DNA of 64,000 bases. Source: Escherichia phage Pinarejo. A program made the translations under genes and the position numbers. This document shows positions 22,820-23,668 of the stretch, in pieces (position 1 is the first letter of the stretch; each line of letters opens with the position of its first letter). The DNA lies in sequence record PP925831.1, one strand, 5' to 3'. Under the pieces are notes generated by a model. It ran no database searches and had not been told where the DNA came from. It was given only the letters and a program-made list of their open reading frames with translations.

Positions 22820-23668
22820 TTAATCAACTGCTATCGGATGAATAGCATTAAACTTATGAAACGCTTCTGATTTTTCTTTGCGCGAAACACACATGCGAAG
22901 AACCTTTAATGGCTCGTCTTCTTCACCCAACGATTTTCTCTTTTCAATATTCGATGTTTTCCAACGAGCTTGCTCTGGAAACTCTCTGTTGATTTGCTCA
23001 AGAGCTCTATTATGTTTTGAATTACTACGAATTGAACTACATCCGCCAGGAGCTTGTGCTTTTCCAGATACAACCAGATATTTGAACAGGGCCAAATGCG
23101 GATAACCTTGATTAATTAAATTGAGAAATGCATACATATCTTCGCACAAATCAATTTTTCCATACCCAATTTGTTCTGTCGTAAGTTTTCCAAGGTCATA
23201 CCATGTATTCGTGAATCCATATGAATTTTCACGATAATTACCCCAAGATGAAGTAATTTTAAAAATTGGTAGACGAGCATGACCGTGATAATACCCGCAA
23301 TCCATGGCATCTTCAACATATTGAATCAATTCATAGAACTGTTCACGAGTTAATTGATTAATTTTATCTACGCACCGTTTATCGTCTCTCTTTCGTATTG
23401 AACTCATACGGATAGTAGTATCATCGTCAATCATCCAGATTCGTTGACCTGCATACATATCAGTAATTGCTTTACGAGTACCGGCAATTCCATTAACATC
23501 ATCAGGAATAGTTACAATTTTAGCTCTAGACCCATAGGCATCATAATAAGCTTTTTCTTCGTGTTCACGCACTACAATATGGGGTTCATAATCAGTCGGA
23601 AACATATCAAGGGCAGAAACTGCCCCTACACGTTGATAGCTTGGAATTACGAATTGAATCATTTCCAC
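22820..23668 (-). CDS. putative glycosyltransferase at the beta-gt locus (possibly beta-glucosyl-HMC-alpha-glucosyltransferase)
   Basis: 282 aa; DxD-like IWMIDDD; sits between uvsX and 42 where T4 has beta-gt, but is not beta-gt-like. Confidence 0.5.
   Translation of the reverse strand: MEMIQFVIPSYQRVGAVSALDMFPTDYEPHIVVREHEEKAYYDAYGSRAKIVTIPDDVNGIAGTRKAITDMYAGQRIWMIDDDTTIRMSSIRKRDDKRCVDKINQLTREQFYELIQYVEDAMDCGYYHGHARLPIFKITSSWGNYRENSYGFTNTWYDLGKLTTEQIGYGKIDLCEDMYAFLNLINQGYPHLALFKYLVVSGKAQAPGGCSSIRSNSKHNRALEQINREFPEQARWKTSNIEKRKSLGEEDEPLKVLRMCVSRKEKSEAFHKFNAIHPIAVD

Follow-up and report, generated by a model that had tools for sequence, protein, structure and literature searches.

Genes and features of the gene 42-uvsX region

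The window, the whole stretch of 64,000 nt analysed here from Escherichia phage Pinarejo (PP925831.1), contained a minus-strand orf at 22820..23668 that encoded 282 aa when counted from a GTG codon, as in the orf list of the window. Its neighbours were uvsX (21561-22742; Pfam T4_UVSX_C and RecA) and gene 42 (23659-24399). An ATG at 23662, two codons inside the GTG start, formed an ATGA overlap with the gene 42 stop and gave a gene of 843 nt with a product of 280 aa. This is the length annotated for the corresponding genes of phages T2, NR1, EL, and Elenatom; the ATG is therefore the likely start codon rather than the GTG, and the gene, referred to below as TAGT, was taken as 22820-23662. The features of the region were as follows.

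22820..23662, minus strand: predicted TAGT (beta-glucosyl-HMC-alpha-glucosyltransferase) gene, 280 aa plus stop, based on the orf, the ATGA overlap, PHROG and Pfam matches, and identity to the T2/T6 enzymes
23420..23428, minus strand: codons of D79-D80-D81, the DxD motif of IWMIDDD, based on sequence, alignment A1, and the AF2 model
22731..23676, no strand: TAGT cassette of 946 bp without DNA homology to T4, in place of T4 23556-25496
23659..24399, minus strand: gene 42, dCMP hydroxymethylase, which makes the 5-hmC precursor; 97% identity to T4 gp42, Pfam Thymidylat_synt

The TAGT orf was uninterrupted over its full length. Its product possessed the sequence IWMIDDD at residues 75-81; D79, D80, and D81 were invariant in the family alignment A1, whose members go down to 31% identity, and all 40 invariant residues of that alignment, DDD included, were present. 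A PHROG 842 match with an E value of 1.6e-89 and the presence of the gene in 474 phage records confirmed that this is a real gene and not a chance orf. The earlier note had described a 282-aa orf between uvsX and gene 42 with a DxD-like IWMIDDD motif; the orf, its place, and the motif stood, whereas the length had to be revised to 280 aa.

A terminator-like hairpin (23608-23628, minus strand; 9-bp stem with 5 G-C pairs) was located within the 5′ coding end of TAGT, 34 nt beyond the ATG. A proper T tract is missing, which makes a terminator improbable; the hairpin is probably fortuitous, and it could have an effect on translation initiation or coupling.

Similarity of the predicted product to TAGT family enzymes

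In the profile search that had been proposed earlier, the predicted product matched both PHROG 842, "beta-glucosyl-HMC-alpha-glucosyltransferase" (profile positions 3-269 of 270), and Pfam PF20691, TET-associated glycosyltransferase or TAGT (38.3 bits, above the cutoff of 27.5 bits; E 1.8e-9; profile positions 2-205 of 205). No match was obtained in the NCBIfam profile search, and a PDB sequence search returned nothing, so that no solved structure of the family is detectable by sequence. Over 280 aa, the protein shared 97.9% identity with the T2 enzyme and 97.1% with the T6 enzyme; residue differences numbered 6 for T2, 8 for T6, 5 for NR1, 3 for EL, and 1 for Elenatom.

Megablast against the phage collection placed the gene in 478 records, 474 of which covered at least 80% of it with 90-99.9% nucleotide identity, the best match being Escherichia phage Elenatom (99.9%). 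Many of the matched records annotate the gene as beta-glucosyl-HMC-alpha-glucosyltransferase. In tblastn searches the homologues extended to 688 records, T2, T6, RB14, RB27, and AR1 among them, with a second tier at about 65% in T4-like phages of Klebsiella, Enterobacter, and Cronobacter, in which the gene also adjoins gene 42.

The AlphaFold (AF2) model of TAGT resembled GT-A glycosyltransferases. As the homologue search for the underlying alignment yielded 11 proteins, the alignment was shallow and the model was of moderate quality. In the model, DDD came after the beta-strand E74-77, with a local pLDDT of about 88. For the C-terminal half, the presumed binding region for DNA or the acceptor, no confident structural counterpart was found. 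The protein thus combined the GT-A fold and conserved DxD of the TAGT family with full-length profile matches, orthology to the T2/T6 enzymes, a location between gene 42 and uvsX, and the accompanying enzymes that would make its acceptor. Similarity in sequence to T4 beta-glucosyltransferase (PF09198, GT-B) was not observed. Nor was dCMP hydroxymethylase replaced by a 5-hydroxy-dCMP synthase as in the Mosigvirus-type DNA arabinosyltransferase system: gp42 was 97% identical to that of T4 and the locus was syntenic with that of T2 and T6.

Organization of the locus in comparison with T4, T2, and T6

The window, T2, and T6 shared the gene order 43 - (small orfs) - imm.1 - imm - 42 - TAGT - uvsX - 40 - 41, whereas the order annotated in T4 is 42 - beta-gt (351 aa) - segA - uvsX. 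In blastn against T4, homology (93%) extended up to window position 22730, within the first codons of uvsX, and was regained (95%) at 23677, within the last codons of gene 42. The intervening cassette thus corresponded in position to a T4 cassette of 1,941 bp comprising segA and beta-gt. T4 beta-gt had no match in the whole 64-kb window (tblastn, best E 1.4), the TAGT orf showed no similarity to it by blastp (best E 3.4), and PF09198 was not matched in the Pfam search of the orf. T4 segA was also without a match in the window (best E 1.4), and only 77 bp separated the TAGT orf from uvsX. These results agreed with the earlier description of a beta-gt locus held by a different glycosyltransferase, with no resemblance to beta-gt and no segA-like gene nearby. 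The proposal made there of a T2/T6-type system, in which alpha-gt is combined with a beta-glucosyl-HMC-alpha-glucosyltransferase, was supported by the identity to the T2 and T6 enzymes, by the gene order, and by the presence of alpha-gt at 35876-37078.

The GC content was 37% for TAGT and 36% for its flanks, compared with 30-31% for T4 beta-gt and segA. In T4, beta-gt is accompanied by a GIY-YIG homing endonuclease. This companion and the low GC content of the T4 cassette suggest that the T4 arrangement was acquired, T4 representing the derived state at the gene 42-uvsX locus.

Many Tequatrovirus genomes shared about 97% identity with the window over 25 kb, and no single record was clearly the closest. 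TAGT is well known and occupies its customary locus here, in a typical Tequatrovirus. The surprise expressed in the earlier note came from taking T4 as the reference, a member of the genus that is atypical at the beta-gt locus, and current understanding is unchanged by the finding.

Between imm.1 and gene 43, a 97-aa orf (25204-25497, minus strand) was predicted to contain a hydrophobic segment and gave no Pfam match; at this position T2 has an 84-aa hypothetical protein and T4 only a gap.

Other genes of the predicted pathway and candidate expression signals

Further genes and signals of the predicted pathway were located elsewhere in the window.

15076..15591, minus strand: homologue of gene 56, dCTPase/dUTPase; tblastn with T4 gp56, 73.8% over 172 aa, E 3.6e-84
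24508..24533, minus strand: MotA-box-like TTGCTTTTA, 12 nt, TATAAT, upstream of gene 42, based on sequence and alignment A2
35876..37078, minus strand: alpha-gt, DNA alpha-glucosyltransferase; 400-aa orf, Pfam AGT E 1.8e-237
37103..37126, minus strand: MotA-type middle-promoter match, TGCTTTA, 11 nt, TAAAAT, 25 nt upstream of alpha-gt; perfect match

The alpha-gt product was 91.5% identical to that of T4 and 99-100% identical to those of 418 phage records. The stretch at 24508..24533, identical in T4 and with a single change in T2 that falls within the spacer (alignment A2), is a candidate middle promoter for the 42-TAGT unit. A strict MotA-box pattern search gave no match upstream of gene 42; the site, whose MotA box deviates at one position, escaped it. 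As the region upstream of gene 42 was 96% identical to that of T4, the early/middle signals of T4 42/beta-gt likely serve 42-TAGT. The ATGA overlap suggests that TAGT is translationally coupled to gene 42, with which it is probably expressed as an early/middle gene. Across the window, the MotA-type pattern had 14 matches against 4.0 expected by chance, and a generic sigma-70 promoter scan yielded fewer sites than shuffles did.

Several other orfs were observed in the window. One of 43 aa (24426-24557, minus strand), small and hydrophobic, was situated between imm and gene 42. At about 24457, a G run had one extra G in the window relative to T4 and T2, within surrounding DNA that was conserved; a 49-aa "phage protein" is annotated in EL at the equivalent of 24426-24557. 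A 207-aa orf (35076-35699, minus strand) between gene 47 and alpha-gt, with a 23-nt overlap with the gene 47 start, matched GIY-YIG weakly (E 3e-4, slightly short of the Pfam cutoff) and probably encodes a seg-like homing endonuclease. A 210-aa orf (41883-42515, minus strand) for an HNH endonuclease (Pfam HNH, E 5.5e-6) lay between nrdG and nrdD and overlapped the nrdG orf. The nrdD gene of T4 carries a group I intron; in the window, nrdD (42512-44329) was one unbroken orf of 605 aa.

Predicted DNA modification pathway

In the pathway proposed here, gp56 and gp42 would substitute 5-hydroxymethyl-dC for dC in the nucleotide pool, with gp56 removing dCTP. After replication, the alpha-gt product would place an alpha-linked glucose onto hmC in the DNA. 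TAGT, a GT-A-fold enzyme of the DxD type, presumably metal-dependent and inverting, would then link glucose from UDP-glucose by a beta-1,6 bond to the first glucose, giving alpha-gentiobiosyl-hmC. Transfer of beta-1,6 glucose onto alpha-glucosyl-hmC in DNA, as known for T2 and T6, is by analogy the best-supported function for this protein. Cloning and sequencing of the T2 and T6 genes is reported from Winkler and Rueger (1993, Nucleic Acids Res 21:1500), and the product of the cloned gene is reported, by secondary citation, to have the activity.

For enzyme activity and for the nucleoside composition of relatives, the literature was relied on. The UDP-glucose-dependent beta-1,6 activity of T2 and T6 was described by Lehman and Pratt 1960, Kornberg et al. 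1961, and Kuno and Lehman 1962 (cited in PMC13216743). The combination of alpha-GT and TAGT is the majority arrangement in Tequatrovirus, and the alpha and beta pair of T4 is found in 6 of 753 genomes (PMC13216743, 2026). HPLC/MS data are available for ten Durham Tequatrovirus phages that carry alpha-GT and, in the slot syntenic with that of T4 beta-GT, TAGT (PMC13390438, AEM 2026). Their DNA contained 5-hmC, alpha-glucosyl-hmC, and alpha-gentiobiosyl-hmC, the last at a level of at least about 40% in all ten, and beta-glucosyl-hmC was not detected (PMC13390438). The TAGTs of the relatives so analysed were about 98-99% identical to that of the window.

The DNA of this phage is accordingly expected, by comparison with these relatives, to carry 5-hmC, alpha-glucosyl-hmC, and alpha-gentiobiosyl-hmC, and no beta-glucosyl-hmC since T4 beta-gt is absent. 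The DNA chemistry had been called an open question in the earlier note; it is much better constrained than that, as close relatives have been measured by HPLC/MS. The glucosylation chemistry bears on type IV restriction (McrBC, GmrSD/BrxU), on Brig1 alpha-glucosyl-specific DNA glycosylases, and on CRISPR-Cas sensitivity.

The sequence identity, the synteny, the conserved motif, the fold class, the full set of pathway genes, and the lack of beta-gt, all computed here, together indicate with a probability of roughly 0.85 that the orf is the Tequatrovirus orthologue of the T2/T6 beta-glucosyl-HMC-alpha-glucosyltransferase and takes part in the classical gentiobiosylation pathway.

TAGT alleles and predicted extent of di-glucosylation

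Sugar ratios differ among phages with TAGT, being 1:2:2 in EL versus about 1:0:2 in NR1, with about 2/3 gentiobiosyl in the latter (PMC13390438), and the gentiobiosyl share is about 5% in T2 versus 72% in T6 (quoted in PMC13390438). For the phage studied here, the TAGT activity level and the sugar ratio, like the expression pattern, are predictions.

Going from the window to T2, the TAGT changes were R11H, V50I, I89M, K95R, I101V, and P251S; going to T6 they were Y40N, V50I, D55G, deletion of D79, I89M, K95R, I101V, and R106H. R11 was invariant and P251 at least 90% conserved in alignment A1. H11 and S251 occurred together in all three independent T2 records (L001, 3501-4343; L008, 1783-2625; L009, 1786-2628), and R11 and P251 in the TAGTs of T6, NR1, EL, Elenatom, and the window, of which those of the window, EL, and Elenatom also had V50, I89, K95, and I101 in common. 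As the T2-specific changes at conserved positions, R11H and P251S, are not found in the window, substantial gentiobiosylation is predicted, on about 40-67% of cytosines as in T6, NR1, or EL and not at the 5% of T2. The low di-glucosylation of T2 may in turn result from these two changes.

TAGT could instead be a weak T2-like allele, or be poorly expressed, giving about 70% alpha-glucosyl, 5% gentiobiosyl, and 25% bare hmC. This is unlikely: although the window TAGT is slightly closer to that of T2 (6 differences) than to that of T6 (8), it has the consensus R11 and P251 that are both changed in T2. T2 does have the gene and yet only about 5% gentiobiosyl-hmC, and near-identical TAGTs do go with different ratios, as in EL and NR1 (PMC13390438); all ten Durham phages, however, reach at least about 40%, and the two whose TAGTs were inspected, NR1 and EL, have R11 and P251.

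A dam homologue was present at 15740-16432 (minus strand), encoding 230 aa compared with 259 aa in T4. An A7 run at about 15745-15751, where the nearest relatives (99.6% nucleotide identity) have A6, shifted the frame, and the sequence for the last 42 residues continued in a different one; either Dam is genuinely truncated or the homopolymer was misread in sequencing. EL has a T4-like alpha-gt, whereas that of the window is of the majority type and only 92% identical to it. With a majority-type alpha-gt and an apparently frameshifted dam, the window matches neither measured group exactly, and with an EL-like TAGT and a dam homologue as in the EL group, but a majority-type alpha-gt, both the 1:2:2 and the 1:0:2 patterns are candidates.

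A broader proposal, tentative and on balance doubtful, is that the TAGT alleles and the type of alpha-gt set the ratio of mono- to di-glucose in T-even phages, R11H/P251S of T2 being hypomorphic and the present phage, as a mosaic, having a ratio of its own. If so, a hypomorphic TAGT in T2 would account for the classic gentiobiosyl difference between T2 and T6. With its EL-type TAGT haplotype, majority-type alpha-gt, and apparently truncated Dam, the phage could have a ratio unlike that of either measured group, which, if true, would affect its sensitivity to alpha-glucosyl-specific defences such as Brig1.

Substrate specificity and integrity of TAGT

A glycosyltransferase of another specificity, acting directly on bare hmC as proposed for "solitary" TAGTs or transferring another sugar such as arabinose, is very improbable here. 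TAGT homologues are present without alpha- or beta-GT in 288 of 753 phage genomes (PMC13216743), which points to other acceptor specificities in the wider family, and specificity does not follow from the Pfam match (E 1.8e-9) by itself. The 97-98% identity to the T2/T6 enzymes and the presence of alpha-gt, however, place the protein in their orthologous group and not among the distant solitary TAGTs. Moreover, gp42, at 97% identity to the T4 dCMP hydroxymethylase, argues for hmC as the base and not for the 5-hydroxy-C of arabinosylation, and only glucose-based modifications are found in relatives (PMC13390438).

Lesions were observed in the TAGT genes of both public T6 records. In MH550421 (L006, 3138-3980), codon 10 is an in-frame stop and the CDS is annotated from Met20; in AP018814 (L002, 3501-4340), one Asp of DDD is missing. 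Both look like stock-specific mutations or sequencing errors. The missing Asp was considered as a cause of the high gentiobiosylation of T6 and the low one of T2 and was rejected, as DDD is present in MH550421 and in NR1, where the gentiobiosyl share is about 2/3; the deletion is limited to the AP018814 record or stock.

That TAGT of the window is an inactive remnant or an assembly error, with no second glucosylation, is the least probable reading: the T6 records are damaged in this gene and one-base homopolymer differences occur elsewhere in the window (dam and the imm-42 spacer), but the orf is intact with all invariant residues of A1 and differs by one residue only from the TAGT of Elenatom. 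Near-identity to characterised orthologues, intact conserved residues, and an hmC-type gp42 disfavour the weak-allele, other-specificity, and remnant readings alike.

Comparison with known systems

In predicted structure, TAGT resembled GT2-type GT-A enzymes, namely BcsA (9fmv), TarP (6h1j), TarS (5tze), and AvpGT (9jma). These cellular enzymes share only 6-17% sequence identity with it, and their acceptors are polysaccharide or teichoic acid, whereas that of TAGT would be a sugar on DNA. With T4 beta-gt, TAGT has in common the syntenic slot beside gene 42 and the predicted use of UDP-glucose to form a beta-glucosidic bond on modified phage DNA (PMC13216743). The two differ in fold, T4 beta-glucosyltransferase being GT-B (Pfam PF09198, PDB 1JG7) and TAGT GT-A, and in acceptor, which is bare hmC for the former and alpha-glucosyl-hmC for the latter.

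Of the closest known systems, NR1 and EL have the same synteny as the window, with alpha-GT and TAGT and without beta-GT, and their TAGTs differ from that of the window at 5 and 3 residues, respectively; a dam homologue is present in the window as in EL, BGP, and Geo. The T2/T6 enzyme, whose gene is named "b-gt" or "ggt" in LC348380, MH751506, and MH550421, shares with the window TAGT the length of 280 aa, the slot between gene 42 and uvsX, the ATGA overlap, the alpha-gt partner, and the DDD motif.
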